Shown in pieces: positions 10,433 through 39,942 of a DNA stretch of 64,000 nucleotides. The stretch's first letter is position 1; each line of letters starts with the position of its first letter. Made by a program: the position numbers and the translations under genes. The stretch is from Candidatus Marinacidobacterales bacterium (GTDB taxonomy: Bacteria; Acidobacteriota; Vicinamibacteria; Marinacidobacterales; DATDRI01): positions 416,001 to 480,000 of the forward strand of contig CBDCNP010000002.1 of assembly GCA_965219415.1 (NCBI GenBank), read 5' to 3'. The notes under the pieces were generated by a model that ran no database searches, was not told where the DNA came from, and saw only the letters and a list, made by a program, of their open reading frames with translations.

Positions 10433-10882
10433 CTACTCGACTCGCTTCAAGACGAGTTGCGCCGTCGACGGTAGATCGATGATGACCTTGTCGCTCTCGA
10501 CTGAATATTTGGCACCGTCGAGGCTCGCCTCCGGCCCGTACCAGACCTCGGTCTCCTGAAACTCCTTCTTGGGATCCATGTGGAGCTCCATGTCTACCAC
10601 CATGCTGATCGTTTCCGGCCCGGTAATCTCGTAGGTACCGTGGTGTGCTTCCGAGAAATCCTTCTGTCGGACATCGCGATTGAAGAACGCAACGTGAAGC
10701 CAATGCTTATCTCCAAACATCATGTATCCGTCGGTCTTGTAACGGACTTGGCTATCGGCCTTGACGTAGGATTCCATCCACCAAGTCCCTTTCAAATCCA
10801 AGTTCCCACTCTGCCCGACTCCGACTCCGACCCCCAGCGCTACGAAGACGAGAACTACAGAGAGAGCTATTAGTTTTTTCAC
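10433..10882 (-). CDS. Secreted lipocalin-like beta-barrel protein
   Basis: Signal peptide MKKLIALSVVLVFVALG; LKGTW (GxW) and HGTYEI strands; RBS GAGGAGG before the GTG start. Confidence 0.6.
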   Translation of the reverse strand: MKKLIALSVVLVFVALGVGVGVGQSGNLDLKGTWWMESYVKADSQVRYKTDGYMMFGDKHWLHVAFFNRDVRQKDFSEAHHGTYEITGPETISMVVDMELHMDPKKEFQETEVWYGPEASLDGAKYSVESDKVIIDLPSTAQLVLKRVE

Positions 10883-10912
10883 TTCATCCTCCTCGAAGTT
10901 TGGTTGCGATCC

Positions 10913-12331
10913 TTATTCGGATGTTGGAGCAGGAGCCCCTTGAAAGGCCAATTCACCCCGCTCGAAAACCCGACCGTTAAGTATGACGACTTCGATATCT
11001 CGAAGATTCCTGATGTCATCCAAAGGATTCCGATTCAAAAGTACTAGGTCGGCCAGCTTTCCTGCTTCGATGGTACCCAACCGATCCCCGGCTCCGATCA
11101 TCATCGCAGCGTTTCGGGTACCGGCAACGATGGCATCCATGGGGGTCAACCCCGACTGCACCAAGAGCTCGAACTCGCGAGGCACATTGTAGCCTTGCAG
11201 AGAATGAATGACCGCGCCTCCCGCGTCTGTGCCCACGGTGAGCTTGACGCCGGCGTCGAAAAACCTCTTGGTGTTCTCCTTCATGGTTGCCACCGTGTCT
11301 CTCGCCCATTGGATTGAATCCGTTTTCAAGAAACCGTCCATCCCGCCAACCGCCCGCTCGAGGGTCTCTTCGCTCTGCAAGGTTTCGGCGACGAAGTCCG
11401 GTACGGAAGCCTTCAAGATCGGATGTTCCCAAAGCTCGGGCTCATCCATGTAGCGGTAGAAAGACTCGAAGAGAACGAGGGTCGGCGTAACGAAGATATC
11501 CGCCGCCGCCATCTCTCCGGGAAGTAGGTCGTCTGCCGGAAGGGGATCTTCGAGCATGTGCACGATGGCACGAGGCGTGACTGCGAGCGCGTCTCGATAC
11601 TCCTTGAGGTCCATGGCGTGGATCATCAACGGCACCCCACCCTCGCGGCAACGCTCGGCAACGAGTGCCATGAGCTCAGGGTCCATGCGGGGAAATGCGT
11701 TCGATGTCCCCAAGCCATTCTCGTAGATGACTTTCACTAGATCGATATTCGCCGCGAAGTAGTTGTTCAGGCGCTCATCGACTTCCTCGGACGTGGTCAC
11801 TCCGCCTCCGTGGCGGCCTCCCCATCCGTCCGGAGCCGTAAAATGCACTCCCCCGGTGTAGAAGCGGGGAGAGAGGACCTTTCCTCCACGCTCTTTGCTC
11901 CGATGCTCGAGGGCCCAATCGACGTTGGGAGAGGATAAGTTAATCAGGGTCGTGACGCCGTTGTACAGAAACGCTCTCGGATTGTTTTCCAGCGCCCGTT
12001 CCTTCTGCTCGTCGGAGAGGCCAAACCCGTTGGTCGACTCGAGATGCGAGTGGGCGTCGATGAGACCGGGGACCAAATACTTCCCGGTGGCATCCACAAT
12101 CTTTGCGTTCGCCGGCAGAGATGCTTCGGCGGCGTCCACGCTTTCGATGCGATTCCCCCTGATAACAACAATCGAGTCCGCTCGAGGGACCGAGCCCGTG
12201 CCGTCGATGAGCGTCGCCCCCTTGATAACGAGGGCGGGTTCCCCGCTTGCTTGTTCGACCGGTGGGGCGGCGCATGCAGCAGCAACCACAGCGGCGCCTG
12301 CGATGAGAGCCCATTCAGTTCTGTGAAGCAT
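10913..12331 (-). CDS. Exported metal-dependent amidohydrolase (lipoprotein)
   Basis: Lipobox AAAC; TLIDGTG, PGLIDAHSH, GVTT, VKVI, GTDAG, GTIEAGKLADLV. Confidence 0.88.
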   Translation of the reverse strand: MLHRTEWALIAGAAVVAAACAAPPVEQASGEPALVIKGATLIDGTGSVPRADSIVVIRGNRIESVDAAEASLPANAKIVDATGKYLVPGLIDAHSHLESTNGFGLSDEQKERALENNPRAFLYNGVTTLINLSSPNVDWALEHRSKERGGKVLSPRFYTGGVHFTAPDGWGGRHGGGVTTSEEVDERLNNYFAANIDLVKVIYENGLGTSNAFPRMDPELMALVAERCREGGVPLMIHAMDLKEYRDALAVTPRAIVHMLEDPLPADDLLPGEMAAADIFVTPTLVLFESFYRYMDEPELWEHPILKASVPDFVAETLQSEETLERAVGGMDGFLKTDSIQWARDTVATMKENTKRFFDAGVKLTVGTDAGGAVIHSLQGYNVPREFELLVQSGLTPMDAIVAGTRNAAMMIGAGDRLGTIEAGKLADLVLLNRNPLDDIRNLRDIEVVILNGRVFERGELAFQGAPAPTSE

Positions 12332-12343
12332 GTCTGCGCCTCC

Positions 12344-13741
12344 TCAGCTCGCCTTGTAGGCAAAATCGGCCCGAGGGTGTACCTGGCCGTCGCGAACGAT
12401 GAGTTCGATTCGTCGTACGTTTTCGATGTCTTCGAGAGGATTGGCGTCGAGAATCAAAAGATCCGCCAGTTTTCCCGCCTCTATAGTCCCTAACTCGTCT
12501 TGGGCGCCGATGAGCTCCGCTCCGACCCGAGTAGCAGCCACCAGGGTCTCCATCGGGCTGAACCCACACTCGACGAAGAGCTTCATCTCCCAAGGCGTGT
12601 TGTAACCCTGAAAATTCCAACCGACCCGTCCCCCGGCATCGGTTCCTATCCCTTGTTTGACGCCTGCCTCGTGCATCTTGGTAATGTTTTCCTTGAAGAT
12701 CGGAATCTTTTCCGCCACCCAATCATAAATCGCATCGCCGGCGATCTTCTGGAAGCGGGCATGCTCTTCTTCCATGAAGTCGGGGCGGCGCATTCGCTCT
12801 AGCAGAAAAGTCGGCACGGTTCCCATCAAAACCGGATCGTCGAACCCTCCCGGCCGCTTGTCATAGTGAAGAAACGCTTCGAAGAGACTAACGGTTGGAA
12901 TGACCGCGACATTGTTGTCCGCCATGTCCTGAAAAAGCGGGTCACCTTCCGGCACGCGCTCCTCCAAACCGTGGACGATGGCGCGAGGTCGAATGGAAAC
13001 CGCCTTTCGATACTCTCTGAGATTGATAGCGTGTACGTAAACCGGTACATCGTCCGCGGCGGCAGCTTCCGCGACGGCCTCGAGCATATCGTCGGGTATC
13101 AATGGAACGAGGCCAGACTTGTCGGCAAGTCCGTCTTCGATCACGATCTTGAAACCGTCAGTACCCCGAGCGATGTAGTCTGCGGCTCGCTGGCGAGCCG
13201 CTTCTGCATCTTTGAGCGCGCCTCCGTGCTGGCTTCCCCATCCGCCCTCTGGAGCGAAAGAGCGTCCCATCGCGTAGATCCTAGGCGAGACGATGCGACC
13301 TTCCCTCTGCGCCGCACGGCGTGCCCAAATCCACTCCTCGGTCGAGGACAAATTGAGAACGGTGGTGACGCCGTTGTAAAGCAGAGAGGTGCCGTTGTGC
13401 TCGATGATCTGTTCTCTTTCCTCTGGCGATATCTGATAGGCGATGGGTGCATCCAAATGGATGTGGGTGTCGATGAGTCCGGGAACGACGAATTTGCCCG
13501 TGGCGTCGACAACCGTAGCCCCACGGGGAGGCTCGAGATCAACCCCTATCGCCTCGATTCGGTTGCCGCGGATCCAGATGTTGGCGCCTTCCCGTGGCGC
13601 TCCACCGGTCCCGTCGATGAGGGTGGCATTCTGGATGAAGACGCCTTCTTGAACCGGCTCCGGCTCACTGCTGCAGGCCCAGAGAGCCCCTACCAAGACG
13701 AGCAAAACACCTAGAAAACTGCTGTCGATCCTCTTCATCAC
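12344..13741 (-). CDS. Exported metal-dependent amidohydrolase (lipoprotein); paralog of 61152-62558
   Basis: Lipobox LWAC; PGLIDTHIHLDAP, DGFKIV, VHAINL, GTDAGG, GKLADL. Confidence 0.88.
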   Translation of the reverse strand: MMKRIDSSFLGVLLVLVGALWACSSEPEPVQEGVFIQNATLIDGTGGAPREGANIWIRGNRIEAIGVDLEPPRGATVVDATGKFVVPGLIDTHIHLDAPIAYQISPEEREQIIEHNGTSLLYNGVTTVLNLSSTEEWIWARRAAQREGRIVSPRIYAMGRSFAPEGGWGSQHGGALKDAEAARQRAADYIARGTDGFKIVIEDGLADKSGLVPLIPDDMLEAVAEAAAADDVPVYVHAINLREYRKAVSIRPRAIVHGLEERVPEGDPLFQDMADNNVAVIPTVSLFEAFLHYDKRPGGFDDPVLMGTVPTFLLERMRRPDFMEEEHARFQKIAGDAIYDWVAEKIPIFKENITKMHEAGVKQGIGTDAGGRVGWNFQGYNTPWEMKLFVECGFSPMETLVAATRVGAELIGAQDELGTIEAGKLADLLILDANPLEDIENVRRIELIVRDGQVHPRADFAYKAS

Positions 13742-13792
13742 GGACTTCCTCCTGTTTCCGCCACGGCGTCCTCACAAAACCGACAAAGGGCG

Positions 13793-15079
13793 TCAGATTC
13801 TAACCTTCTTTTCCAAGAGCGTATATAGCACAACGATAGCGACGAGCGGCATCGTAGCCACCAAGGCAAAGACGGGTGGATAACCAACGTGGTCCACGAG
13901 CCATCCGGTGCCTAGTGTCAAAGCCAAACCACCGAGTCCGGCCCCCATTCCGCTGAGCCCTGTCACCGAGCCCACCGCCTCCCGCGGAAAGGCTTCGCCA
14001 CAAAGCGACATCATGTTGGGGGCCCATAGCCCGAAGCCAAAGGTTGCCACGCTGATTCCAGTGAAGGTGACCAGAATCGGAAACGGGAAGGCGGCGAGCG
14101 CCCCCGCGGTCATCATGATCATCCCCGCCGCCATGACCACCAGACGTGCCTTGATGACTGGAACGCCCCGCTTGATGAAGAGATCGGAGAACCACCCGCC
14201 AAGCAAAATTCCTACTCCCTGAGCTGCAAAGGGAATCCACGCGTAGCGGCCGATCTCGGCGAGACTGAAGCCGGCGTCGCGTTTGAAGTACTCGGGCAAC
14301 CAATAGTGGTAGAACCAGGAATTGGGATCGGCAAACATGCGCGCCAGTATGACGGCCCAAACACTCCGCGAGCGCAACAGCGAGAGATAGGGGATGTGAG
14401 AACTGCTCGAGGGGGCAACGGGCTCGCTCTCTCGAATCACCTCCAGCTCGGACGGTGTGATGCGGGGATGCTGCTCCGGCAGTCGGTAAACCGCCCACCA
14501 AACCAACACCCAGACGATGCCCAATAATCCCGTCAAGATAAAGGCGGCGCGCCAACCGAGCGAGAGCGTGATCCAAGCCACGAACGGCACCGAGACGACC
14601 AGCCCCACACTGGTTCCGGCACCCCAGATCCCGTTGGCCAAGCCGCGCTCGTGCTTGGGCAACCACTCGGAGACCCCTCGTACACATGCCGCCCAACTTC
14701 CTGCCTCTCCGGCCCCCAGGAGAAAACGGAAGATCGAAAAGGACATCACGCCTCTTCCGAAACCATGGAGCATGGCCGCTGCCGACCACCAAAGCATGAT
14801 GACCGCAAAGCCCTTGCGGGTTCCTATGCGGTCGATCATCCAGCCGGTTACCGGCTGCATGATGGTGTAAGCGATGAGGAAGCTGGAGAGGATGCGAGCG
14901 TAGCCGAAGTTGGAGATGCCTAGGTCGTCGCGGAGCGTCGGGGCGACTACCGCGAGCGTTTGCCGATCGACATAACTGATGGCAGTGGCCAGGAACAAGA
15001 GAGCAACGATCCACCAGCGGAGATTAGGTATCTGTCGCACCGGCCCCCTTGCGACCGAATCTGTGCCTCGACTCTGCAA
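13793..15079 (-). CDS. MFS transporter (ACS/ExuT-like); paralog of 876-2141
   Basis: LRWWIVALLFLATAISYVDRQ, DRIGTRKG, GEAGSW, WLPEYF; exact start uncertain. Confidence 0.9.
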   Translation of the reverse strand: MQSRGTDSVARGPVRQIPNLRWWIVALLFLATAISYVDRQTLAVVAPTLRDDLGISNFGYARILSSFLIAYTIMQPVTGWMIDRIGTRKGFAVIMLWWSAAAMLHGFGRGVMSFSIFRFLLGAGEAGSWAACVRGVSEWLPKHERGLANGIWGAGTSVGLVVSVPFVAWITLSLGWRAAFILTGLLGIVWVLVWWAVYRLPEQHPRITPSELEVIRESEPVAPSSSSHIPYLSLLRSRSVWAVILARMFADPNSWFYHYWLPEYFKRDAGFSLAEIGRYAWIPFAAQGVGILLGGWFSDLFIKRGVPVIKARLVVMAAGMIMMTAGALAAFPFPILVTFTGISVATFGFGLWAPNMMSLCGEAFPREAVGSVTGLSGMGAGLGGLALTLGTGWLVDHVGYPPVFALVATMPLVAIVVLYTLLEKKVRI

Positions 15080-15082
15080 TGC

Positions 15083-15982
15083 CTACCGGGCTCGTATCAT
15101 TTCTAGAATCGCGACAAACAGCTCGCTATCCGCATCGCCCAGTGACCGGGCGGTCTCGGCATGGTCCATGCCCTTGAGCATGATGAGCTTCGCGTCGACT
15201 CCGCTGCCCTTCAGTTTTTCCATGAACTCCCGAGATGACTCTCCGTAGGGTTCTTCCGTACCGACCGCGACGATGAACCGTGGTGAGGGGTTGTTGATGT
15301 TGAAGAACGGAGCGGCCTGCTCGCGATTTGACTCGTCGATGAATCCGGGAAGCCCGCTTATGTCTTTCAGGTGATAGGGACCGCTGATCGGCGCCACTCC
15401 CTTGATGAGACCAATGGGAACGCCGTGCTTTTCCCCCCACACGCCATTTGCACCGGCGAAACCCGAGAGGATCGCCCCGGCAGAATGCCCGCCGACGTAG
15501 ATGAGCTCGGGGTCGCCACCAAAGGAGGTGATGTTCTCGTGAATCCAAGCCACCGCCGCCGCCACGTCCTCGGACTGAGAGGGGAAGCCGAAACCGTCCA
15601 CGGTCAGTCGGTAGCTCGCCACCGCGGTGATGATTCCGTGCTCGGCAAAAGGAAGGGCGATGCCCCCGTAATGCGCACGGTCTCCCTCGCGGAAGCCTCC
15701 GCCGTGCAGGAACAAGAAGGTCGCCGCTTCGTCCGGCTGCCCTTTGGGTAGATACAGATCGAGCTTCTGCTTCAGGTCTTTCCCAAATGCTAGGTCCAGG
15801 TGGTTTGGCAGTTCCATGCGCGCCTTCGCGGTGTCCGCATCGTTCGCATCGTAGAACGCGACCCAATCGATGCTGAACTCACCGGCGTGGACTTGTGTGT
15901 AGTACTTTGATCGATCCTGCGCCGACATCGAAACGGTCGCGAGGAGATAACCCACCACCGCAAAGATTGCCGTCCTACTCAT
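15083..15982 (-). CDS. Secreted alpha/beta hydrolase (HSL/arylformamidase-like)
   Basis: Signal peptide; KLDLYLP, HGGGF, YRL, GHSAG nucleophile elbow, C-terminal DH; RBS AAAGGAG before ATG 15982. Confidence 0.85.
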   Translation of the reverse strand: MSRTAIFAVVGYLLATVSMSAQDRSKYYTQVHAGEFSIDWVAFYDANDADTAKARMELPNHLDLAFGKDLKQKLDLYLPKGQPDEAATFLFLHGGGFREGDRAHYGGIALPFAEHGIITAVASYRLTVDGFGFPSQSEDVAAAVAWIHENITSFGGDPELIYVGGHSAGAILSGFAGANGVWGEKHGVPIGLIKGVAPISGPYHLKDISGLPGFIDESNREQAAPFFNINNPSPRFIVAVGTEEPYGESSREFMEKLKGSGVDAKLIMLKGMDHAETARSLGDADSELFVAILEMIRAR

Positions 15983-16027
15983 GAACAAACTCCTTTCCGC
16001 TGTCACGTTGTCCCGTGCGCTCAACCA

Positions 16028-16942
16028 TTATTTCGGTGGAACGTCGATCACCATCGCGTCTTCCGCCAGGATGACTTCTCCCGAGAAATTCTTCTTCGCG
16101 TCTTGAACGATCTTGTCCCAGATTTCTGGCGAGCGACGCTTGCCGTAGTACATCGAGGCCATTTCGATCGCGGCATCGGCCGAGGTGTAGGGTCCAAGAT
16201 GAGTCAATATCAGCGTCTTGACCCCCGCCTCCTGGGCCACTCTACCGGCGCCCAAGGGCCCCGAGTGGCTCCACATCTTGCGTTCTTCGATGATTTCGTC
16301 GAGAAAGGCCGTGTCATGAATGAGATAGTCCGCACCCCGCGCGAGGTCGATCATCCCTTGACAGGGGCTGGTGTCGCCGCTGATCGCGACGACTCCGTAA
16401 GGAGTCTCGACCCGGTAACCGACGGAAGGCAACCCGACCCTCTGATGATGTTCGACATCTCCGACGATGACCTTGAAATTACTCCCTTCGTAGACGAAGC
16501 CGGTCTCGATGTCCTCGACTTCGACGGCCGGAGTGTCCATGGGCTTGTGCTTGATATGGGGCGGCAAGGCCTTTATGTATGCCCTCACGAACGCCACGTC
16601 CGCTTTGTGGGACTCGAAGATCGTCGCACTCGACATATGAGTGGTCCCGTTCGGACCGTAGACTTTGAGTACTTTCCTGCGACCACAGTTCCAGGTGGTC
16701 ATGATCAAGTAACCGTAGTCGCACATGTGGTCCCAGTGCAGGTGCGTGAAAAACAAATAATCGACGTCCATCGGGTTGATCCCGGCTTTCACCAGGTTGA
16801 CGGTGGTTCGCTCTCCGCAGTCAAACAAGAGGATGGTGTCATCGACAATCACCGCCTGGCTCGGATTTCCCCGGTCCGGGTCGGGAACCGCCGAGCCCGA
16901 ACCGAGTATCGCAACCTTCATCCCTTTCAGGCCTTTCGCCAT
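16028..16942 (-). CDS. MBL-fold metallo-hydrolase (RNase Z/AtsA-like)
   Basis: LGSGSAVP, DCG, THLHWDH, SGDT, HD, LTH motifs. Confidence 0.85.
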   Translation of the reverse strand: MAKGLKGMKVAILGSGSAVPDPDRGNPSQAVIVDDTILLFDCGERTTVNLVKAGINPMDVDYLFFTHLHWDHMCDYGYLIMTTWNCGRRKVLKVYGPNGTTHMSSATIFESHKADVAFVRAYIKALPPHIKHKPMDTPAVEVEDIETGFVYEGSNFKVIVGDVEHHQRVGLPSVGYRVETPYGVVAISGDTSPCQGMIDLARGADYLIHDTAFLDEIIEERKMWSHSGPLGAGRVAQEAGVKTLILTHLGPYTSADAAIEMASMYYGKRRSPEIWDKIVQDAKKNFSGEVILAEDAMVIDVPPK

Positions 16943-16952
16943 GCTCCCTCCG

Positions 16953-17600
16953 CTACCGCTCGTTCATTCGCGCTAGGTAATCCAAGACTTCCTTTAGGGT
17001 GACGACGTCCCCGTACCGTTGATCGATATCGATGAGGTTGGCCTCATTCGCCAGCGGCGACCGATCGCCTACCGCCTCTCGAACAACCAGGGGACGAAAA
17101 CAGTGTTGCGCCGCATCAACCGCCGAGGCCCTCACGCAACCGCTGGTCACGCATCCGCAAATCAGCAGCGTGTCGATCCCGCGCTCCGAAAGCTCTGCAG
17201 CCAGCTCGGTACCGAAAAAAGCCGAGCCCTGCTGCTTCGGGACGACGAGGTCGGTATCCCGACGCGGCAAGCGAGGGTCGACCCGAGTCCAACGAGAGCC
17301 TTTCTCGAGGACGGCAACCCGGGGCGACTTCACTCCTAGCAAGATCTTTTTCCCTTCATCGCCAACGTATTCAACCGTCGTGAAAACTGTGGAGATTCCA
17401 CATCGCTCCGCCGCCTTCAAGATCTGGACCGTCGCCTCGATTTCATCGTCCCAGTCGCCTCCGAGCGGGGACTCGCTGCTGGTGAAACCCTCGATGAAAT
17501 CAACGACCAGCACGGCGGGGGCTTTACCGGCACCCATGCGAGGCGCGCAGGTGTAAGGGTAGTGAGTCCGAATCCCCGCTAGCAGGTCTTCTTTTGTCAT
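16953..17600 (-). CDS. Isochorismatase-family cysteine amidase (maleamate amidohydrolase / N-carbamoylsarcosine amidase-like)
   Basis: VVDF..GFT, K..SAFFGT, GCVTSGCVRASAVDA, VREAVGDR, IDQRYGDV. Confidence 0.88.
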   Translation of the reverse strand: MTKEDLLAGIRTHYPYTCAPRMGAGKAPAVLVVDFIEGFTSSESPLGGDWDDEIEATVQILKAAERCGISTVFTTVEYVGDEGKKILLGVKSPRVAVLEKGSRWTRVDPRLPRRDTDLVVPKQQGSAFFGTELAAELSERGIDTLLICGCVTSGCVRASAVDAAQHCFRPLVVREAVGDRSPLANEANLIDIDQRYGDVVTLKEVLDYLARMNER

Positions 17601-18100
17601 CAATCCTTGCGTTCGGGAGGGTCAATCCCCTGTATGCGCAGAAGGATGTAAACCTGGCCGCGGTGATGCGCTTCCTCCTGCACGATGCTCCATAACAAGC
17701 GCTCGATGGAAAGCTCGACCCGGAACGCAGGGAGTTCCTTTTCCAGATCCGCCGGCATGAGGTCGGCATAGGCTTTGACGGTGGTTTCGTGGACCTTGTG
17801 CAAAAGCTTGATGCAGTCGTCAACAGTGGGAGCGTCTTCGGGCGGAAAGACACTCCCAGTCAGTATGTCCTTCGGCTCGTTGTCCAAAATGATCTTGTCG
17901 ATGATGTAATGCTCGACGTAGGCGATGTGTCGAAGCGTGTCGTTGATACTCCTCCGCCCGTTCTCCGGGATCCAGTTGAATACCGACTCGACTTCCTCGG
18001 GAGTCTTTTCCGCTCTCAATTTTTCCACGACTCGTTCCAGTCCATCGAACAGCTGTTTTCGCTCGCGCTCCCAGTAGGGGTAGAGATCGTCTATCTTCAT
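17600..18100 (-). CDS. DinB/YfiT-family protein
   Basis: RSINDTLRHIAYVE ... EEAHHRGQVYILLRIQGIDPP; RBS AGAAAGGAG before ATG 18100. Confidence 0.85.
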   Translation of the reverse strand: MKIDDLYPYWERERKQLFDGLERVVEKLRAEKTPEEVESVFNWIPENGRRSINDTLRHIAYVEHYIIDKIILDNEPKDILTGSVFPPEDAPTVDDCIKLLHKVHETTVKAYADLMPADLEKELPAFRVELSIERLLWSIVQEEAHHRGQVYILLRIQGIDPPERKD

Positions 18101-18123
18101 GAGTATGAGTGCTCCTTTCTCAA

Positions 18124-18195: not shown

Positions 18196-18206
18196 GCAGG
18201 GCGTAG

Positions 18207-18836
18207 TCAATTCTTGAGCCCCCTGCTAGTGCCATACTGGTTGTGGAATGTCTTTTCGTGAATAGGAATACGAAGGCTTTCGGTGAAACGAACCTCGTTG
18301 GCGGCGACGCCCAGAGCAACGAATGAGACGATGCGGAGCCCTTCGGGGATGTGTAGTATATCCCGCACCTGGGGAACGCGGGCCAGCCTGGCGATCCAGG
18401 TACTTCCCAGGCCCATGCAGGTAGCAGCGAGCAAGAGGTTCTGGATAGCGGCGCCCATGGACATCAGGAAGAGATCCTCTTGCCCTTGGGTCGGGATCTC
18501 GGAGGCGTCGACGTAGGATTCCTTGCTCCCGACGTTACCGCAGACGGCGATGAGGAGCGGCACGGTAATGAGATCGGCTTGTTTCCTGGACACGGTCTGA
18601 TAGTGAGCATCGTGGAACAACGACTCCTCCAGATAAGCGTCCCGGAGCTCGCGCTGGATCTTCTCGTCGTCAATGAGAATGAGCTCCCATGGCTGGGTGT
18701 TGGCCGCCGACGGCGCCCACCGTACCGCCTCCAGCATCGTATCAATGGCTTCCGAAGATACCGCTCCCGGGCGGTAGGCCCTGCTGGTTCGCCTCCTCTT
18801 GATGACGTCCAGAAGGTACGCCGGTCCTTCGTTCAT
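18207..18836 (-). CDS. Nitroreductase-family flavoprotein
   Basis: IKRRRTSRAY, WAPSAANTQPW, GAAIQNLLLAATCMGLGSTW. Confidence 0.9.
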   Translation of the reverse strand: MNEGPAYLLDVIKRRRTSRAYRPGAVSSEAIDTMLEAVRWAPSAANTQPWELILIDDEKIQRELRDAYLEESLFHDAHYQTVSRKQADLITVPLLIAVCGNVGSKESYVDASEIPTQGQEDLFLMSMGAAIQNLLLAATCMGLGSTWIARLARVPQVRDILHIPEGLRIVSFVALGVAANEVRFTESLRIPIHEKTFHNQYGTSRGLKN

Positions 18837-18841
18837 AATGA

Positions 18842-20281: not shown

Positions 20282-20306
20282 ATCAAGTCTCCTAACACGC
20301 GGTTGA

Positions 20307-31926: not shown

Positions 31927-33647
31927 GAACTCCTGAGCGACCTCGTTTTTTCCTCGTCGACTCCGTTTCCCGCAAGCACGACCTTATATGTTTCTCTAGC
32001 AGCTTCCTTCGATATGTAGCCGTCTAGGACATCCTCCCGCACTAGGGCCGGATCTCGCCGCGCTGGGTCGCCGTACCCTCCCCCGCCGGCGGTCAGGTTT
32101 CGAACCCTGTCTCCCACAGCGACCGCCGCCCGAAGGGTGCCACCCGCCTTTTCTCGGTCGGTGCCCGGGAATAGAACAAAGCCGTTTCGCTTCGGCTCTC
32201 CTCCTCCCGCAAGCGGCCAAGGGCTCGTTTTCGTCTTTTTCGTGACCGAGAGGATCTCTCCGTCAGAGATGAATCGTATGTCGCGCTGGATTCCCAATCC
32301 TCCCCGGTACTCTCCAGCGCCGCCGCTATCGATTCTGATCTCCGAACGCTCGAAGAACATACCGGTTTTCACTTCCAAGACCTCTGTCGGTGTGCTGCGC
32401 ATGATGCTACCGGAAAAATGGTGTGTGGCGTTCGCCCCGTCGTGAATCGGCGTCGCCCCCCAGCCGATTGGACCACCGTCACTCACCGCGAAGAAACGTT
32501 CGGTGTCTGGGTGAAGACCGACCATCATGAACCCCGGCAGATCGCTCCCGGAAGACGCGGCCATGAGCTCCGGCATGCCCTCCGCCAAGGCCTTATTGAT
32601 GAGCTCCAATGCGACGATGGCCGTCCAAAGTGTGAATGTGGCAGCAGGATAAACGGCGTGAAAGAGCGTCCCCGGCGGGGCGATGACCGTGAGCGGGCGG
32701 AAGTTTCCGGCGTTGGTCGGGGAATGAGGAGTGGTCAACGACTTGAAAACGATCTTGGCCATCGTCTCCGACAAGCCCAACGGCACGTTCACCGGTCCCG
32801 GTACTGCCGGTGACGAGCCGGTGTAGTCGACCAAAAACTGATCTTCGTCGATGGTCACCGTGACCCTCATGGGGATCGTATCGTCCGAGACACCGTCATC
32901 GTCCAGCAAGTCTTCCGCCATCCAGGACCCTTTTGGAAGCATTCGCAGAGCCTTTCGGGCCAACTGCTCCCCGTGCTCCATGATCCGCGTCACCGCAGCG
33001 TCAAAACTCTCTCGACCAAATTTGTCAAGTATCTCCACCAATCTCTTCTGACCGGTGCGCGTTGCCGCCACTTGCGCATCCAGATCGCCGAACACCGATT
33101 CGGGCATCCGTGAGTTGAAACGGATGAGCTCCATGATTTCCCGATCCGGCCGGCCTCTCTTGTAGACCTTGGTTCCAGGAAATATGAGCCCTTCCTGATG
33201 CATGTCGGTAGAATCGAGTACGTAGCCTGCATCCTTTGCGCCGAGATCCACCCAATGGGCCCGGATGCACGTGTAGGCAAAGGGACGATCTTCATGGGGC
33301 GCAAATGTAGGGGCGAATAGAGTGACGTCGAGAGTATGGGCGGCACTCCAGTAGGGGTAGTTGAGAAGCACTATGTCGCCGGGCTCCAGATTCTCTTCGC
33401 CCACGTGCTTCACCCCCTTGCGTATCGCATGGTCGTTGGCACCCACGAAGAAGGTCAGGCTGGGCGCCTCGGCGACAAGCTCGAGCTCGCGACTGTAGAT
33501 GGAGATACCGAAATCCAGAGCTTCGTAAATGACGGGGTTGAAAGCGGTACGAATGAGAGTACGTTTCATCTCGCTGGCCGCGGAGAAGAGGTAACTCCGA
33601 ACGACTTCGACCGTAGCCCCATCCAAAGTCATCGCAGTGCCTGTCAA
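31923..33647 (-). CDS. hyuB: Hydantoinase B/oxoprolinase beta subunit (copy 2)
   Basis: Same motifs as copy 3; TTG start overlaps the stop of copy 1, with an alternative ATG at 33632. Confidence 0.9.
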   Translation of the reverse strand: MTGTAMTLDGATVEVVRSYLFSAASEMKRTLIRTAFNPVIYEALDFGISIYSRELELVAEAPSLTFFVGANDHAIRKGVKHVGEENLEPGDIVLLNYPYWSAAHTLDVTLFAPTFAPHEDRPFAYTCIRAHWVDLGAKDAGYVLDSTDMHQEGLIFPGTKVYKRGRPDREIMELIRFNSRMPESVFGDLDAQVAATRTGQKRLVEILDKFGRESFDAAVTRIMEHGEQLARKALRMLPKGSWMAEDLLDDDGVSDDTIPMRVTVTIDEDQFLVDYTGSSPAVPGPVNVPLGLSETMAKIVFKSLTTPHSPTNAGNFRPLTVIAPPGTLFHAVYPAATFTLWTAIVALELINKALAEGMPELMAASSGSDLPGFMMVGLHPDTERFFAVSDGGPIGWGATPIHDGANATHHFSGSIMRSTPTEVLEVKTGMFFERSEIRIDSGGAGEYRGGLGIQRDIRFISDGEILSVTKKTKTSPWPLAGGGEPKRNGFVLFPGTDREKAGGTLRAAVAVGDRVRNLTAGGGGYGDPARRDPALVREDVLDGYISKEAARETYKVVLAGNGVDEEKTRSLRSS

Positions 33648-35368
33648 CCGGTCCGCAGTTTGCGGGTCGCTTCTTCATCCAACGCACCGTCGGCGACGAC
33701 GACCTTGTACACTTCTCGGGCTGCATCGCGAGACACGTACCCGTCGAGGACATCCTCGAGAACCCGAGCCGGCACCCGGTCAGCCGGATTCCCGTATCCG
33801 CCTCCGCCGGCGGTGAGATTCCGACACTTGTCTCCCGCCGCCACCGCCACTCGGTAGGTCCCCACCTTCTTCTCCCGCTCTGTCTCCGGATAGAGAACAA
33901 AACCGTTCCGCATCGGTTCCTTGCCGCCGGCGAGGGGCCAAGCGCTGGTCTTCGTCTTCTTCATCACCGAAAGCATCTCGCCATCGGAGATGAACCGGAT
34001 GTCGCGCCTTATGCCCAACCCGCCCCTGAATTGTCCCGGGCCACCGCTATCGGTGCGGAGCTCCAGGCGCTCGATGAACATCCCGGTCTTGACCTCCAAG
34101 ACTTCCATCGGTGTATTGCGGACTAGACTCTCCGACAAATGGCTGTTGGCATTGGCGCCATCATGGTCGGGCGTCCCACCCCAGCCTACCGGATCGTTAT
34201 TGCTCACCGCGAAGAAACGTTTCGTGTCCGGGTGAATACCGATCATCATGAACCCGGGCACGTCGCTTCCCGAGGAAGCCGCCATGCGTTCGGGCATGCC
34301 CTTGGCGAGGGCCTTATAGATGAGCTCCAGCCCAACGATACCCGTCCACAGCGTGAAGGTCGCGGCCGGGTACACGGCGTGAAAGAGGGATCCGGGTGGC
34401 GCGATGACCTCCAAGGGCCGGAAGTTGCCGGCATTGGTCGGGGAATAGGGTGTGGTCAGCGACTTGAGCACGACCTTGGCCATGGTCTCCGTTAAACCGA
34501 ACGGAACGTTGACCGGTCCCGGAACCCCCGGCGAAGAACCGGTGAAATCGACTACCAGCCTATCGTCGTCGATGGTCACCGTGACTTTCATGGGGATCAT
34601 GTCGTCGGAGACGCCGTCATCATCCAGTAGGTCTTCCGCGGTCCAGGAACCGTTGGGAAGCTCCTGAAGCCCTCTCAGTGCCAGTTGTTCACCGTGCTCG
34701 AGAATACGTTTCACGGCCGCATCGAGGGTCTCCCGACCAAATTTCTGGAGAATCTCTACCAATCTCTTGTGCCCGGTCCGAGTCGCAGCAACCTGGGCTT
34801 CGAGATCGCCGAATACCGACTCTGGCATGCGCGAGTTGAACCGGATGATCTCCATGATCTCTTTGTCCGGTTTGCCTTTCTTGTAGACCTTCGTACCAGG
34901 AAAAATCAGCCCTTCCTGGTGCATGTCGGTAGAGTCGAGCACGTAGCCCGGATCCTTGGCTCCGAGATCCATCCAATGGGCGCGGATGCACGTGTAGGCG
35001 AACGGCTTGTCCTCGTTCGGCGCAAAGACCGGAGAGAAGAGCGTGACGTCCAGAGTGTGTGCGGCGCTCCAGTAGGGATAATTGAGAAGAACAATGTCTC
35101 CGGGCTCAAGGTTTTCTTCGCCGACATGCTTCACCCCCTTGCGTATCGCATGGTCGTTGGCACCCAGAAAGAAGGTCAGGCTGGGAGCCTCGGCAACCAA
35201 CTCGAGGTCCCGACTGTAAATCGAGATACCAAAGTCGAGAACCTCGTAGATGACCGGGTTGAATGCCGTGCGGATGAGGGTTCTCCTCATCTCCCCGGCA
35301 GCCGAGAACAGATAGCTCCGAACGACTTCGACGGTGGCCCCGTCCAATTCCTTCGTCTGTTCCTTCAT
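33644..35368 (-). CDS. hyuB: Hydantoinase B/oxoprolinase beta subunit (copy 1)
   Basis: Same motifs; ATGA-coupled to hyuA. Confidence 0.9.
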   Translation of the reverse strand: MKEQTKELDGATVEVVRSYLFSAAGEMRRTLIRTAFNPVIYEVLDFGISIYSRDLELVAEAPSLTFFLGANDHAIRKGVKHVGEENLEPGDIVLLNYPYWSAAHTLDVTLFSPVFAPNEDKPFAYTCIRAHWMDLGAKDPGYVLDSTDMHQEGLIFPGTKVYKKGKPDKEIMEIIRFNSRMPESVFGDLEAQVAATRTGHKRLVEILQKFGRETLDAAVKRILEHGEQLALRGLQELPNGSWTAEDLLDDDGVSDDMIPMKVTVTIDDDRLVVDFTGSSPGVPGPVNVPFGLTETMAKVVLKSLTTPYSPTNAGNFRPLEVIAPPGSLFHAVYPAATFTLWTGIVGLELIYKALAKGMPERMAASSGSDVPGFMMIGIHPDTKRFFAVSNNDPVGWGGTPDHDGANANSHLSESLVRNTPMEVLEVKTGMFIERLELRTDSGGPGQFRGGLGIRRDIRFISDGEMLSVMKKTKTSAWPLAGGKEPMRNGFVLYPETEREKKVGTYRVAVAAGDKCRNLTAGGGGYGNPADRVPARVLEDVLDGYVSRDAAREVYKVVVADGALDEEATRKLRTG

Positions 35369-37407
35369 TTGGCCTCCGTCTGGATCACGAGTTGTCCGTA
35401 GGGATCCACGCGCACCGATTGTTTCGAGTGAATGACGGTAGTCGAAGTTCCCTCATCGACGATGGCCGGGCCCTTGAACTCGTCACCAGGCTGCAATGAT
35501 TTCCGGCGATACACTTCGAAGGGGACGACCTTGCAAAGATCGAAGCAGTAAGCGTCTCTCGCCCCGAGAATGGCTCCGCCGAACGTGACTTCTTCTTTCG
35601 GAAGCTCGGTCATCTCGGGCTTGTCCATTAGGCCGCGGCCGCGGACTCGCAAGTTGACGGTTTGCATCAAATCCGAAGTCGTATGTCCGTAGCGTGTTTT
35701 GTGTAAGGCTTCGAAACGCTTGCGGAGCTCCTCGAACGGTAGCCCTGGGTCGACCGAGACGTCCAAAGCGTGCTCCTGTCCCAGGTATCGGAGCTCCAGC
35801 ACCCGATCGATCTCGATCTCCTTGTCGGACATACCTTGTTTCCGAAGCGCGTCGATCGCTTGTTTCTCGAGCTCCCGAAACCCATTCTCCAACTTCTCGG
35901 GATCGTAATCTTCTAAGACCTGCACATCGGTGCGCGAAAAATCGGCCGCGAGATCCGACATCAACATTCCCCAAGCCGAGAAGGCGGCGGGAGCAAGAGG
36001 AACAATAGTCTGAGGTATGGCCATTTCCCGCGCCAGGAGAGGCGCGAACATCGGACCGGCACCGCCGAAGGCCAGCAGCGTAAACTCCGTCGGATCGTAA
36101 CCACGTTCGACGGAGATCTCGCGGATGGCACCGACGGTGTTCGCCATCACGACGTCAAACATCCCGGCCGCCGCTTCGAGCACGTCGATCCCGAGAGGCT
36201 TGGCGATGACCCGATCGATGCCCTGCCGACTAGCTTCCGCGTCGAGCTCCATGCGCCCCTTTAGAAACTTGTTCGGGTCGATGTATCCGAGAGCCAGCGC
36301 CGCGTCGGTCGTCGTCGGCTCGGTGCCTCCTTTTCCGTACGCAATCGGTCCCGGCGCCGCTCCCGCACTTTGGGGCCCCACTTTGAGTAGCCCTTCTTCT
36401 AGCCAAGCGATGGAGCCGCCGCCCGCCCCAATGCTGCGGATGTCGTAGATCGGAATGAGGGCGGGGAGATGCTCGAGGTCGGCCTCGTGCATGAGGACCG
36501 GCTTCCCGTCCTCGATGAGGCAAGAGTCCAAACTGGTCCCCCCGAAGTCGACAGAGATGAGACGGTTGTTGCCGATCGTCCGTGCGATATGGGCCGCCCC
36601 CACAATGCCACCCGCCGGCCCGGACATGACGGTGAAGATCGGGCTCCGCCGCGCCACTTCCGCGGTCATGGCTCCGCCGCTCGAGCGGGTGATGAGAAAC
36701 CTGCCGTCGAAGCCTCTCGACCCCAACTCTTCCTTCAACCGGTCTACGTACTCCTCATAGATGGGGCGAATGTAAGCGTCGAGGACCGTCGTGCTCGTGC
36801 GCTCGTACTCACGATACTCGCGCGTGATATCTGTGGAGATCGAAACCGCAACCTCCGGGAAGTTTTCCTTCAACAGACGCGCCGCGCGCTGCTCATGCTC
36901 CGGGTTCTTGTAAGAGTGCAAGAAAACGACCGCTAGCGAGCGGAGCTCGTGATCTTCGATCAGGGTTCGCGCCGCTTCCAGCAGTGCCTTTTCGTCGAGC
37001 TCTTCGACGACCTCACCCTTGACATTGATGCGCCCGGGGACTCCCGCGGTGTGCCGGCGTCTCACCAAGGGTACCGGTTTTTCGTACCGGAAGTTGTACA
37101 TGTGCTCCGCCGGGACATTGGCGCGGCCGATTTCGAAGATGTCGCGAAAGCCTTCATTAGTAATGATGCCGGTCAGCGCGCCCTTCCTTTGAAGAATGGC
37201 ATTGAGACCGAGCGTGGTGCCGTGAATGAAAAGGCTCGCTTGTTTGAGATCGGTGCCGAGCTTCTCGAGGGCTTCGAGCACTCCCTTCCAGGGCTCTTGC
37301 GGGGTGGCGGGAGATTTTTCGAGCCGGACGGACTGGTTCGAGACGTCGAACTCGATGGCGTCGACGAACGTGCCACCGATGTCGACCGCGAGTCGATATG
37401 GCTTCAT
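35365..37407 (-). CDS. hyuA: Hydantoinase A/oxoprolinase ATP-binding subunit
   Basis: VDIGGTFVD, HGTT, EYERTSTT, SGPAGG, DFGGTS, SIGAGGGS, GPQSAGA.PGP, AFGGAGP; start MKPYRL. Confidence 0.93.
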   Translation of the reverse strand: MKPYRLAVDIGGTFVDAIEFDVSNQSVRLEKSPATPQEPWKGVLEALEKLGTDLKQASLFIHGTTLGLNAILQRKGALTGIITNEGFRDIFEIGRANVPAEHMYNFRYEKPVPLVRRRHTAGVPGRINVKGEVVEELDEKALLEAARTLIEDHELRSLAVVFLHSYKNPEHEQRAARLLKENFPEVAVSISTDITREYREYERTSTTVLDAYIRPIYEEYVDRLKEELGSRGFDGRFLITRSSGGAMTAEVARRSPIFTVMSGPAGGIVGAAHIARTIGNNRLISVDFGGTSLDSCLIEDGKPVLMHEADLEHLPALIPIYDIRSIGAGGGSIAWLEEGLLKVGPQSAGAAPGPIAYGKGGTEPTTTDAALALGYIDPNKFLKGRMELDAEASRQGIDRVIAKPLGIDVLEAAAGMFDVVMANTVGAIREISVERGYDPTEFTLLAFGGAGPMFAPLLAREMAIPQTIVPLAPAAFSAWGMLMSDLAADFSRTDVQVLEDYDPEKLENGFRELEKQAIDALRKQGMSDKEIEIDRVLELRYLGQEHALDVSVDPGLPFEELRKRFEALHKTRYGHTTSDLMQTVNLRVRGRGLMDKPEMTELPKEEVTFGGAILGARDAYCFDLCKVVPFEVYRRKSLQPGDEFKGPAIVDEGTSTTVIHSKQSVRVDPYGQLVIQTEAK

Positions 37408-38579
37408 GATGGATCCTTTCGAACGGTGCGGCCCGCCTGCATGACGAAGAAAATCCCTTCGAGCGCTTTGATATCTTTGAGGGGATCTTCGCGGACGGCG
37501 ATCAGGTCCGCGCAATAGCCGGACTCGACAAGCCCGACGTCGCCGTCGATACCCATGAGCTCGGCAGGGCGAATGGATGAGGAACGAATCGTCTCGAGCG
37601 GCGAGAGGCCCGCGTCAACCATATAGGACATCTCTCGTACGGTGGCGTTGACTCCGTCCGACACTTCGCCGGGCGGTATATCGGTGCCGTTGACGATCTG
37701 AACCCCTTCCCGCACCGCGGTGCGGATGCTGTCCAGGTGCATACCACCGGCCCCGGTAGCCTTCTCGATGGTCCAGCCTGCGAACCCGTGATCCTTCATC
37801 CATCCCGGCGACCGCGTCACCGACAACGTCGGTACGACATACCCCGCGGCTTCTTTGATGGCCTGGCAGGCTTCCTTATCGAGCTGATATCCGTGCTCGA
37901 AACAGCGGACTCCGGCCTTCGCGGCTTTGATGATCTGCCCCGCCCCTCCCGCGTGCGCACAGACGTAGGTGTCTCGGGATCGCGCCACCGAAACGACGGC
38001 CTCCATTTCCTCGACACTCATCTGCGGCTCGGAGAAGGTCTCCTTCTCCTGCGCGATGCCGCCGGTGATGAAGACCTTGATATGGTCGGCGCCGGCGGTG
38101 AGCTCCTCGCGACCGGCCTTGCGAAAGGAGTCCGGACCGTCGGCGATGAGAGCACCGAAGCCACTCCCGTGACCGCCGGTCACGGAGATGCTCTTACCTC
38201 CGGAGACGATGCGCGGCCCGGTGGCCCAGCCCTTCTGGATCATCGTCCGCAGCGACAGATCGGCACGATGCATCTCCCCTACCGTACGAACGGTGGTGAT
38301 CCCCGCATGGAGAGCGTCGTTCGCCCTCTTCTGACACCTGAGCGCGGTGATCGCCGGACTCTCGTTCTCGTCGGTTTCGTGAAAAGGGAAGACGATCGAT
38401 AAATGAGTATGACAAGTGATGATGCCAGGCAGCAAGTAGGCCCCTTCGAGATCGATCGCATCTCTAATGCCTGACGCACGATCGATGGAAGCGATCCGGC
38501 CGTCGCCAATGGTGAGTGATCCCTCCTTGAACGATCCTTCCCGAACATCGAGGATCCTTGCGTTGGTCAGTACCGTCAT
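37404..38579 (-). CDS. Cytoplasmic amidohydrolase (Xaa-Pro dipeptidase-like)
   Basis: PGIITCHTH, GITTVR, TGGHG, HIKV, CAHA, FEHG, NGTD; no signal peptide. Confidence 0.88.
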   Translation of the reverse strand: MTVLTNARILDVREGSFKEGSLTIGDGRIASIDRASGIRDAIDLEGAYLLPGIITCHTHLSIVFPFHETDENESPAITALRCQKRANDALHAGITTVRTVGEMHRADLSLRTMIQKGWATGPRIVSGGKSISVTGGHGSGFGALIADGPDSFRKAGREELTAGADHIKVFITGGIAQEKETFSEPQMSVEEMEAVVSVARSRDTYVCAHAGGAGQIIKAAKAGVRCFEHGYQLDKEACQAIKEAAGYVVPTLSVTRSPGWMKDHGFAGWTIEKATGAGGMHLDSIRTAVREGVQIVNGTDIPPGEVSDGVNATVREMSYMVDAGLSPLETIRSSSIRPAELMGIDGDVGLVESGYCADLIAVREDPLKDIKALEGIFFVMQAGRTVRKDPS

Positions 38580-39942
38580 GTTGAGGCCTCCACACGAAAC
38601 TGGAGCGGGTAGAGTAGCCTCATCCCACCGCCATAGACCACCATCGTCACCACGAGTGACACGATAGGCTGGATACTCTCCGGCGGCGCGAGACGGCCGG
38701 CCACCACCCCCGCCGCGAGAGCAACAAGAGCCGCCAGATTCACACCGCGGGTGTATCGATACCGCCCATCCCTACTGTAGAAATCTTCCATGGCGGGTCG
38801 CCGACCTCTCACCAGGAAATAGTCCGCGATCATGACACCCACGAGTGGCGCAAAGATAGCCCCTAAGGCTACGAGGAATTCCGCTAGGTATCGTGTCACG
38901 CCAAAGTAGCCGAGCGCCGTGACGAAGAACCCAAGGACCAGGGTGTGAAGCCAACGCGAGCGACCGGGGAAAATATTCGTAAGCGCCAGCCCCCCGGAGT
39001 ACAAATTCTTGTCGTTGGTCGTCCAGGTCGCGAAGATGATGAGAACAAGCGCCGGTATTCCCAGGCCGAGCTGCTGAACTCCCAACACCGGATTCCACTC
39101 TCCGCTGACGAGGCGAGAAAGTGCGCCGAGGCCGATCATGAAGGCCGAGACCGGCACGATCCCGGACCAAATCCCAAGCCACAGCGAGCGATGGTCTTTC
39201 GAGTAGCGAGAGAGATCGGAAGAAGTGAAAGCGGCGGTGAACTGGCCCGACACCATGATGTTCATTCCGGCGAGAAAGCTCAGGCTTCCGTCACCTGGCC
39301 GATTGATGAGCTCCTGGAAGGGATGATCCAAGGCGATCTTCCAGGACAAGAGGCTGCAGAGAACGAGTAGAGCCGGCACCGACCAGGTGGCCAGCCTTTG
39401 AATCCAGCCGAAGCCCATGACCGCGATGACCACGTTGAGCGCCCCCATGACAATATCATGAGGACCGGCGAGGAAAAGCCGCTCATTCGCTCCATCACGC
39501 CATCCGCGGCCAACCCCGCAAGCTCTGCCTGAAACGCGAACCAACCGATCCCTGAGACTGTGATCGCTAATGAGGCGATCCAGGTCCCCGATGGAAAACC
39601 CAGCGATGAGCGGGTGAGCACGGACGCGGGGAGTCCGTGATCCGCCCCCGGGTAACCGGTCAAACTAATTATCGCGGCGGCGACGGTGTTTCCGATGAGG
39701 CCCACGACGACCGCCTCTTTGAAGGAAAGCCCGGGGAGCAAGATACCCCCCATCATCATCATGGGCAGGCAGACGTTGATTCCCGCATACATGACGAAGA
39801 GCGAGAACCAGCCGCCGGTGCGCGAGGCAGCGGGGACGGCGTCGACGCCGAAAGATTCGGCCTTCAGTGACAATAGACCCTGCCTACTAGAGAAAAAGCC
39901 GGCCGCGGCTGAAGCGTCTGCAGACGGCCCTTGCGCTTCCAA
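38576..39942 (-). CDS. NCS1-family purine/cytosine/hydantoin permease, frameshifted near 39455
   Basis: N-half (GLPASVLTRSSLG, GWFAFQ) and C-half (SDLSRY, WTTNDKNLYS, PLVGVMIADYF, YTRGVN) lie in adjacent frames and are joined by a 1-nt indel; start uncertain. Confidence 0.85.

Follow-up and report, generated by a model that had tools for sequence, protein, structure and literature searches.

How far does a long run of adjoining genes make up a single metabolic system? The question is raised by a 64,000-nucleotide stretch of DNA (hereafter the window) from Candidatus Marinacidobacterales bacterium (phylum Acidobacteriota, class Vicinamibacteria; assembly GCA_965219415.1, contig CBDCNP010000002.1, here C3:416001-480000), part of an 8.05-Mb genome of three contigs that has 59.2% G+C and is 96% complete. 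Within it, 24 adjoining minus-strand genes (g01-g24) run from 39873 down to 10433 and include one HyuA and three HyuB subunits of the ATP-dependent hydantoinase type. On balance, we favour the reading that this array serves the catabolism of one or more hydantoin-like cyclic amides or ureides, and that it is conserved in the genus and built on an older cross-phylum module. The core's tie to an outer-membrane and periplasmic arm is real and recurs across phyla.

The gene set was drawn up from an open reading frame (ORF) listing, Pfam matches and inspection of start codons, and bears out the 24 consecutive minus-strand genes of an earlier, preliminary description of the window. Of the span given there, 10433 to 39942, the lower end stands; the upper end belongs only to the longest possible ORF, and the gene starts at 39873. 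Apart from one label (for g24), the protein families named there agree with Pfam, and the cytochrome (g08) does carry two CxxCH motifs; the genes listed came to 23, g21 having been omitted. The array reads as follows.

g01, 38576-39873, minus strand: NCS1 permease, frameshifted; PF02133 matches in two frames
g02, 37404-38579, minus strand: cytoplasmic amidohydrolase (Cc2672 / Xaa-Pro dipeptidase / ochratoxinase-like); HxH motif kept
g03, 35365-37407, minus strand: HyuA, ATP-binding subunit; Pfam match and ATP motifs
g04, 33644-35368, minus strand: HyuB1, metal subunit; Pfam match and metal tetrad
g05, 31923-33632, minus strand: HyuB2; 81% identical to HyuB1, absent from the congener G001
g06, 30199-31926, minus strand: HyuB3; 77% identical to HyuB1
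g07, 29210-30202, minus strand: MDR/PIG3-type NAD(P)H quinone oxidoreductase; Pfam match
g08, 27846-29213, minus strand: exported dihaem c-type cytochrome, distantly CCP/MauG-like
g09, 26872-27849, minus strand: exported MBL-fold hydrolase; Pfam match, deletion remnant in the congener G002
g10, 24917-26869, minus strand: PQQ-dependent dehydrogenase, lipoprotein; Pfam match, single copy in the genome
g11, 23502-24899, minus strand: exported amidohydrolase; Pfam match
g12, 22771-23484, minus strand: hydantoin/allantoin-type racemase; PF01177, both catalytic Cys motifs kept
g13, 21701-22774, minus strand: exported esterase (alpha/beta hydrolase); PF00756, frameshifted in G002
g14, 20307-21698, minus strand: exported amidohydrolase; Pfam match
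g15, 18842-20281, minus strand: exported amidohydrolase; Pfam match
g16, 18207-18836, minus strand: nitroreductase-family flavoprotein; Pfam match, remnant in G002
g17, 17600-18100, minus strand: DinB-superfamily protein; Pfam match, 106-nucleotide gap in front
g18, 16953-17600, minus strand: isochorismatase-family cysteine amidase; Asp/Lys/Cys triad kept
g19, 16028-16942, minus strand: cytoplasmic RNase-Z-like MBL-fold hydrolase; generic RNase-Z-like matches only
g20, 15083-15982, minus strand: exported alpha/beta hydrolase; Pfam match
g21, 13793-15040, minus strand: MFS transporter; Pfam match
g22, 12344-13738, minus strand: lipoprotein amidohydrolase; 54-56% identical copies beside the core in gammaproteobacterial loci L021 and L054
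g23, 10913-12331, minus strand: lipoprotein amidohydrolase; Pfam match
g24, 10433-10882, minus strand: exported 149-residue protein of no recognised family; conserved in three genomes

The junctions are tight. Eight are certain ATGA overlaps (g01/02, 02/03, 03/04, 05/06, 06/07, 07/08, 08/09 and 12/13), two more may be, depending on the choice of start (g04/05 and g10/11), and g17/18 is a single TGATG overlap, so the many such junctions reported earlier are there. The remaining spacers measure 2-54 nucleotides, with the sole exception of the 106 nucleotides between g16 and g17; only one gap above about 55 nucleotides had indeed been described. Comparison of this gap with G001 revealed no conserved promoter-like block. 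Eleven proteins have hydrophobic N-termini (12-residue Kyte-Doolittle maximum of at least 2.15), several with lipobox-like cysteines, and 11 soluble proteins with a maximum of at most 1.66 were classed as cytoplasmic.

This layout bears on an alternative in which the genes share a direction but no common function, a small hyu operon (g01-g07) having come to lie beside unrelated operons: a PQQ dehydrogenase/cytochrome pair, amidohydrolase paralogues, a detoxification-like set of nitroreductase, DinB, amidase and MBL genes, and an MFS transporter. Such accretion, and the division into these units, deserves serious weight, though we doubt it. The 8-10 coupling overlaps span the supposed borders, for instance at g07/g08 and g12/g13. 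A crude greedy ORF caller, whose count includes ParE downstream and omits a fragment of the NCS1 gene, also ranks the array first in length among the genome's 2,975 same-strand runs (24 genes, followed by 22, 22 and 16). Moreover, terminator-like sites between 9800 and 29000 are below expectation (7 against a shuffled mean of 14.6), and there is a single promoter-like site. The scan found no terminator after g24, and folding of 10290-10440 gave no advantage over shuffled sequences (z = +1.13). In favour of accretion, the genome is rich in the very families concerned, with 68 amidohydrolase, 13 HyuB, 9 HyuA, 10 MBL and 12 alpha/beta-hydrolase loci and further amidohydrolase arrays of 4-6 genes, which would make such an assemblage unremarkable. 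For every exported amidohydrolase of the array, the nearest paralogue in the genome also lies outside the array.

The head of the array carries the following elements.

40091-40120, minus strand: sigma-70-like promoter TTGACA-18-TAGAGT, 10 of 12 matches
40058-40076, no strand assigned: operator-like palindrome 1, TGTCAC-N7-GTGACA, just downstream of the -10 box
40208-40226, no strand assigned: operator-like palindrome 2, TGTTAC-N7-GTAACA, adjoining the divergent GntR gene
40289-41329, plus strand: divergent GntR-family regulator, likely start ATG at 40355

The promoter, read from 40120 to 40091, is the sole sigma-70-like site seen upstream, in agreement with the one promoter reported earlier. 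Both palindromes lie in the 346-nucleotide spacer toward the GntR gene and share the pattern TGTYAC-N7-GTRACA, which occurs exactly twice in the 8.05-Mb genome, both times at the array head. In G001 both promoter hexamers and both palindromes are kept amid otherwise diverged spacer DNA, and the pattern likewise has exactly two sites in 6.3 Mb. The locus is probably under the control of a GntR repressor, with the palindromes as candidate operators. The roughly 220-residue C-terminal domain of the regulator has no Pfam match. A gathering-level Rfam scan of the whole window returned no leader riboswitch, the only hit being an ALIL pseudoknot at 57861-57977. The regulator heads a divergent plus-strand operon (40289-45475) that continues with an exported sulfatase-TPR fusion (757 residues), a lipoprotein cytochrome c and a sarcosine-oxidase-like flavoprotein. 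Its order is the same in G001, and the candidate operators are common to it and the array.

Conservation within the genus was assessed in the two congener genomes, G001 and G002, and by a search of 41 genomes of the order with HyuB, in which matches above 36% identity were confined to three genomes of this genus. In G001 only HyuB2 is missing; the other 23 genes keep their order, with 81-96% identity between the amino-acid sequences. G002 holds g02-g24 in order on a contig that begins inside g02. The ratio of non-synonymous to synonymous substitution rates (dN/dS) is 0.046-0.175 at dS 0.36-0.93 for genes compared with G001 (HyuB2 was compared with G002 instead). These low ratios show that all 24 genes are kept under purifying selection.

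The HyuA/HyuB core has the hallmarks of its family. Three ATP-binding motifs of the ASKHA type, DxGGTxxD, DxGGT and GxxPGP, define HyuA-type subunits (PMC8453981, section 2.1), and g03 carries them as DIGGTFVD at residue 9, DFGGT at 287 and GAAPGP at 349, together with the Pfam domains Hydantoinase_A, A_N and A_C. The metal tetrad D45/H104/D107/H131 is present in HyuB1, HyuB2, HyuB3, an orphan fourth HyuB and all orthologues. The best solved relative is a fused N-methylhydantoinase (7hk5; 412.6 bits for HyuA and 264.7 for HyuB), the caprolactamase 6yra scoring lower (365.8 and 178.6 bits). Moreover, the caprolactamase equivalogs NF050156 and NF050157, with a 1000-bit cut-off, were missed by HyuA (539.4 bits) and by the HyuBs (216.5-220.9 bits). 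Fourteen pocket positions were mapped by hand from the CapB pocket described in the legend to Figure 10 of PMC8453981. Each HyuB paralogue has its own signature at these positions, identical in the orthologues of all three genomes, and the arrangement is consistent with one HyuA ATPase serving several HyuB metal subunits.

The orphan HyuB (C3:1901048-1902779) is 71% identical to HyuB1 and has no adjoining HyuA. Its neighbours are an esterase paralogue, an intact M19 dipeptidase, a methyltransferase and a Ser/Thr kinase, and an ISL3 transposase is near.

Next we consider what the accessory enzymes resemble. The closest solved relatives of g12 are hydantoin/allantoin racemases (3qvj, 5lfd), and its motifs FCAADPG and LGCTGM are present. 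For g18 they are N-carbamoylsarcosine amidohydrolases (26st_A, E 3.1e-48; 1nba_A, E 7e-28), with the Asp-Lys-Cys positions aligned. Those of g02 (E 2e-51 to 6e-31) are Cc2672 (3mtw), the Sgx prolidases (3feq/3n2c, 3mkv) and ochratoxinase-type enzymes (4c5y, 8ihq). Together, the relatives of HyuAB, g18, g12 and the permease fit a hydantoin-type route, and it is from such enzyme relatives that we infer the substrate class.

The cytochrome g08 (455 residues, two CxxCH motifs) has a weak PF03150 match, an Atlas score of 0.98 to cytochrome c / CCP_MauG clusters and no solved sequence relative at E 0.01. Its AlphaFold2 model, built with 10 homologues, was unusable, with a mean predicted local distance difference test score (pLDDT) of 44.3. 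The 'lipocalin-like' label once given to g24 did not survive, there being no Pfam or NCBIfam match and only weak Atlas leads (Lipocalin_4/DUF4488 at 0.87-0.88). Its AlphaFold2 model, from three orthologues, was likewise unusable (mean pLDDT 45.8); the gene is nonetheless kept in three genomes at a dN/dS of about 0.10-0.12. An iodotyrosine-deiodinase-like identity for g16 was rejected: its best solved relatives are generic nitroreductases, and deiodinase matches are weak (E about 1e-6).

The favoured reading suggests the following sequence of events. A TonB-dependent receptor, encoded in the operon of G001 and to be supplied here by paralogues, would import a substrate that exceeds the size limit of porins. 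Exported amidohydrolases of the Arg-carboxypeptidase / Xaa-Pro-dipeptidase / N-acyl-amino-acid hydrolase type would then trim it, and the esterases, MBL hydrolase, PQQ dehydrogenase and dihaem CCP/MauG-like cytochrome could help to trim or oxidise it. The freed ring compound would enter through the NCS1 permease, the MFS permease or both. HyuA, as the ATPase, would open the ring with one of the three HyuB metal subunits, whose pocket signatures differ. Finally, the racemase would provide the correct enantiomer, and g18 and/or g02 would strip the carbamoyl group to yield an amino acid.

The same relatives could be read as a creatinine route, running from creatinine to N-methylhydantoin, then by HyuAB to N-carbamoylsarcosine, by g18 to sarcosine and onward through sarcosine-oxidase-like oxidation. 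A creatinine route has been inferred earlier from marine sponge metagenomes (PMC6742649, PMC7848895), and it would suit the N-methylhydantoinase and N-carbamoylsarcosine amidohydrolase that are the best solved relatives of HyuA/HyuB and g18. The divergent operon, which has its operators in common with the array, includes a gene like monomeric sarcosine oxidase, and there is a creatininase-family gene at 1-1131 of the window. However, a search of the 96%-complete genome yielded no CodA-type cytosine/creatinine deaminase (NF005748, E 1e-10; the model matched in 4 of 14 control genomes), and the creatininase-family gene reaches 93.9 bits against a curated cut-off of 235. The oxidase-like gene (44231-45475) scores 164 bits against a cut-off of 257, and its protein is probably periplasmic because of its Tat-type signal, SRRRFLK. 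A racemase would moreover be pointless for achiral N-methylhydantoin, and three HyuBs and a TonB receptor superfluous for a molecule of about 113 Da. We consider this route improbable. As a separate observation, the creatininase-family gene adjoins an MFS transporter 49% identical to g21 (window 1-2141, minus strand).

A second substrate was considered, namely cyclic dipeptides (diketopiperazines) or peptide lactams, with HyuAB opening the lactam and dipeptidase-like amidohydrolases cutting the linear product. This draws on the amidohydrolases themselves: g02 and the five exported ones fall in the Arg-carboxypeptidase / Xaa-Pro dipeptidase / ochratoxinase group, and for all six the best NCBIfam model is the Caulobacter Xaa-Pro dipeptidase (121-260 bits against a cut-off of 500). 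M19 dipeptidase genes adjoin both the array and the orphan HyuB, and in a Halorussus genome a HyuAB of 56% identity is grouped with M20 and M28 peptidases and a Dpp/Opp-type ABC transporter. The enzyme family also includes lactamases (PMC8453981). Against it, g18 and the hydantoin/allantoin-type racemase suit ureides better than peptides, and the literature turned up no family member that opens diketopiperazines, though that exact question was not searched. NCS1 permeases, by family name, are nucleobase/hydantoin-type carriers, which likewise speaks against peptides. We give the diketopiperazine or lactam route little credence.

To place the hydantoin-type reading in a wider setting, relatives were sought outside the genus, where six gammaproteobacterial loci were inspected; the Acidobacteriota comparison comprised the three same-genus genomes and, for g08, 300 others. 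The nearest HyuA relatives (54-56% identical) come from the one Halorussus genome and from gammaproteobacterial metagenome-assembled genomes. Of 126 genomes in the order to which the gammaproteobacterial assembly belongs, 15 have a HyuA match at E 1e-150 or better, with identities of 53-55% in 8 of these. A metagenome scan with HyuA yielded 13 short contigs that added little context. All six gammaproteobacterial loci have a g02-like amidohydrolase (54-56%), followed by HyuA, HyuB (62-64%) and an NCS1 permease, the last only about 25% identical to g01. A TonB receptor lies in the same stretch in five of the six, and a g22-like exported amidohydrolase in two (L021 and L054). For g07 there is only a 30%-identical MDR counterpart, in one locus.

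The closest parallel is L054, a 12-gene same-strand array (G388:C1:422500-442400). It begins with a TonB receptor, four exported amidohydrolases, a cytoplasmic amidohydrolase, HyuA and HyuB, and continues with NCS1, a GFO/MocA oxidoreductase, a g08-like dihaem cytochrome (75.6%), a g22-like lipoprotein amidohydrolase and a second TonB receptor. Its cytochrome is nearer to g08 than are g08's own paralogue (65%) or any other acidobacterial homologue found; such homologues occur in 5 of the 300 other Acidobacteriota genomes, the best at 59%. With the neighbouring core at 53-64%, this level of identity suggests a separate, more recent transfer of the cytochrome between lineages. That a second phylum also pairs the core with exported amidohydrolases, the cytochrome and a TonB receptor argues against accretion. 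The link between receptor, exported amidohydrolases, cytochrome and HyuAB has thus arisen, or been transferred, in two phyla. The coupling of periplasm and cytoplasm proposed in the preliminary description is upheld by these loci and by G001, where a receptor gene stands behind the same promoter. Co-occurrence outside the genus was seen for the core, TonB receptor, exported amidohydrolases and g08, and none with the core was found there for about 15 of the 24 genes. The cyclic-amide system that it proposed can be recognised in the hydantoin-type core (NCS1, amidohydrolase, HyuAB, racemase and the carbamoylsarcosine-amidase-like hydrolase).

A bolder version would have a hitherto undescribed 'amide utilisation locus' type shared horizontally by marine Acidobacteriota and Gammaproteobacteria, in which the TonB receptor imports a larger natural product bearing a hydantoin or lactam ring, periplasmic amidohydrolases, esterases and redox enzymes take it apart, and HyuA works combinatorially with three to four interchangeable HyuBs. 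We put this forward as speculation that is rather unlikely to hold in full.

Several observations weigh against a single system of 24 genes. The first concern its distribution. Outside the genus, only g01-g04, g08, g22 and the TonB receptor have been seen with the core, and no co-occurrence with it was found for g09-g21, g23 and g24 in the gammaproteobacterial loci or the g08 survey; that most array genes do not travel with the core favours accretion. In five gammaproteobacterial genomes, homologues of the PQQ dehydrogenase (at most 44%) and the racemase (at most 34%) are distant and off the locus, and g24 has no homologue in the five searched. A 43%-identical g18 homologue in one gammaproteobacterial genome sits away from the core locus, and the five other Acidobacteriota genomes with a g08 homologue have no cluster genes within about 10 kb of it. 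Conservation within the genus also carries less weight than it might, gene order there being expected from common descent and the flanks being syntenic too. Furthermore, three accessory genes have been lost in G002, where only deletion remnants of g09 and g16 survive and a frameshift divides g13, and HyuB copy number varies between relatives, both of which are in keeping with accretion.

Others concern function and expression. In the NCBIfam scan, no enzyme of the array reached any equivalog cut-off. HyuC-type N-carbamoyl-amino-acid amidohydrolases are of the M20 or nitrilase type, and no M20 or CN-hydrolase Pfam domain was found in any of the 24 proteins; g18 and g02 are possible substitutes. 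Among the four HyuB paralogues 8 of the 14 pocket positions vary, against 221 of 567 columns overall, a modest excess only. A sigma-70 scan may miss internal promoters, and a single transcript for all 24 genes is suggested by spacing and motifs. That the 24 genes act as one functional system is a proposal. Within the favoured reading, the array has probably grown in the genus by the addition of accessory genes to the core.

The last of these points concern uptake. In G001, the first gene of the array, between the conserved promoter and operators and NCS1, encodes a TonB-dependent receptor of 1,081 residues; here there is no such gene between the promoter and g01. Moreover, g01 itself is frameshifted. 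Alignment with the G001 orthologue and an intact paralogue (C3:5582376-5583674) places a single-base deletion near 39452, and the spot is spanned without gap or mismatch by run contigs from two studies, though the assembly may itself derive from one of these. Though of the NCS1 family, g01 lies below every NCBIfam equivalog cut-off. With the receptor missing from the array and NCS1 frameshifted, uptake would depend on paralogues or the MFS transporter. Receptor copies at 85-86% identity to that of G001 are found from 62703 of the window onward and at C3:5579247-5582231. Of the 14 TonB-receptor paralogues in the genome, 6 have an amidohydrolase no more than 6 kb away, which is more than chance would give: 500 random placements averaged 1.7 and never exceeded 5.

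Several of these receptors stand in clusters of their own. At C3:5579214-5583674 there is a duplicate array head, in which an intact NCS1 with 89-90% protein identity to g01 comes after a receptor that is 86% identical to that of G001 and may be broken at the N-terminus; the operator palindromes are absent there. A second receptor-led array (window 45482-54337, minus strand) opens with a TonB-dependent receptor of 1,086 residues, 53% identical to the operon-leading receptor of G001, and continues with an amidohydrolase, a luciferase-like monooxygenase, a 165-residue protein without known family, an amidohydrolase and an MBL hydrolase. About 22 kb from the 24-gene array, a second hyu-like cluster runs from 61152 to past the window end (C3:477170-494295). 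It holds an amidohydrolase, a TonB receptor (85% identical to the lead receptor of G001), an alpha/beta hydrolase, distant HyuB and HyuA, an NCS1 58% identical to g01 and three MBL hydrolases.

Immediately downstream of g24, a gene for a Phd/ParD-like antitoxin (9853-10107, minus strand) overlaps a ParE toxin gene (9530-9856, minus strand), and the pair has its own promoter-like site at 10064-10036. Beyond it, an M19 membrane-dipeptidase gene on the plus strand is split into two ORFs (8219-8788 and 8927-9373) and is probably a pseudogene. On the other side of the array, an IS3-family element (window 56462-57977), comprising an rve integrase ORF and the ALIL frameshifting pseudoknot (87 bits), adjoins a local drop in G+C to 52%.

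If both arms act on one substrate family, the idea of a utilisation locus would extend from glycans to nitrogen-rich cyclic amides, and if they act together this would help to explain the amidohydrolase expansions in some marine bacteria. One HyuA with several HyuBs offers a natural experiment on the substrate range of ATP-dependent hydantoinases and lactamases, enzymes of interest for amino-acid and nylon-monomer biocatalysis. Were the combinatorial reading true, HyuA/HyuB would be a modular ATP-dependent ring-opening enzyme, each HyuB being tuned to a different ring. The genome-unique palindromes and their GntR partner provide a clean handle for an inducer search.

Lastly, we compared the locus with known systems. 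Searches of the literature on N-methylhydantoinase, on Marinacidobacter and on sponge-symbiont or acidobacterial hydantoinases and amidohydrolases turned up no account of such a locus. The hyuABC genes of Pseudomonas sp. NS671 form an ATP-dependent HyuA/HyuB hydantoin cluster (PMC8453981, section 2.1). Like hyu clusters, the array combines what is by sequence a two-subunit ATP-dependent hydantoinase with an adjoining candidate carbamoyl-removing enzyme, a hydantoin-type racemase and an NCS1-type permease gene, the last frameshifted here. Unlike them, it has 24 genes rather than a handful, one HyuA with three HyuBs, an isochorismatase-family amidase and a Cc2672-like amidohydrolase in place of HyuC, and eleven exported proteins, with a TonB receptor in related versions. 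The creatinine deaminase route (7hk5/9h03; 26st, 1nba) supplies the best-scoring solved relatives, and its catalytic motifs are kept, whereas here no deaminase was found, the subunits are unfused and multiplied, and a racemase and a periplasmic-looking oxidase are present. With the caprolactamase CapAB of Pseudomonas jessenii (6yra; PMC8453981) the locus shares the alpha-beta architecture, the ATP motifs and the Asp-His-Asp-His site, but NCBIfam scores are far under the cut-off and the pocket residues differ. The Cc2672, Sgx prolidase and ochratoxinase enzymes are the closest solved relatives of g02; however, scores fall under the equivalog cut-off, and five of the six amidohydrolases here are exported or lipoproteins. 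Polysaccharide and other TonB-dependent utilisation loci resemble it in gathering a receptor, exported hydrolases, an inner-membrane permease, cytoplasmic enzymes and a dedicated regulator in one locus, whereas here no SusD-like gene was recognised, the hydrolases are for amides and esters rather than glycosides, and the receptor lies outside the array. Taken together, these comparisons describe a variant of hyu-type clusters embedded in a TonB-linked locus that spans periplasm and cytoplasm.

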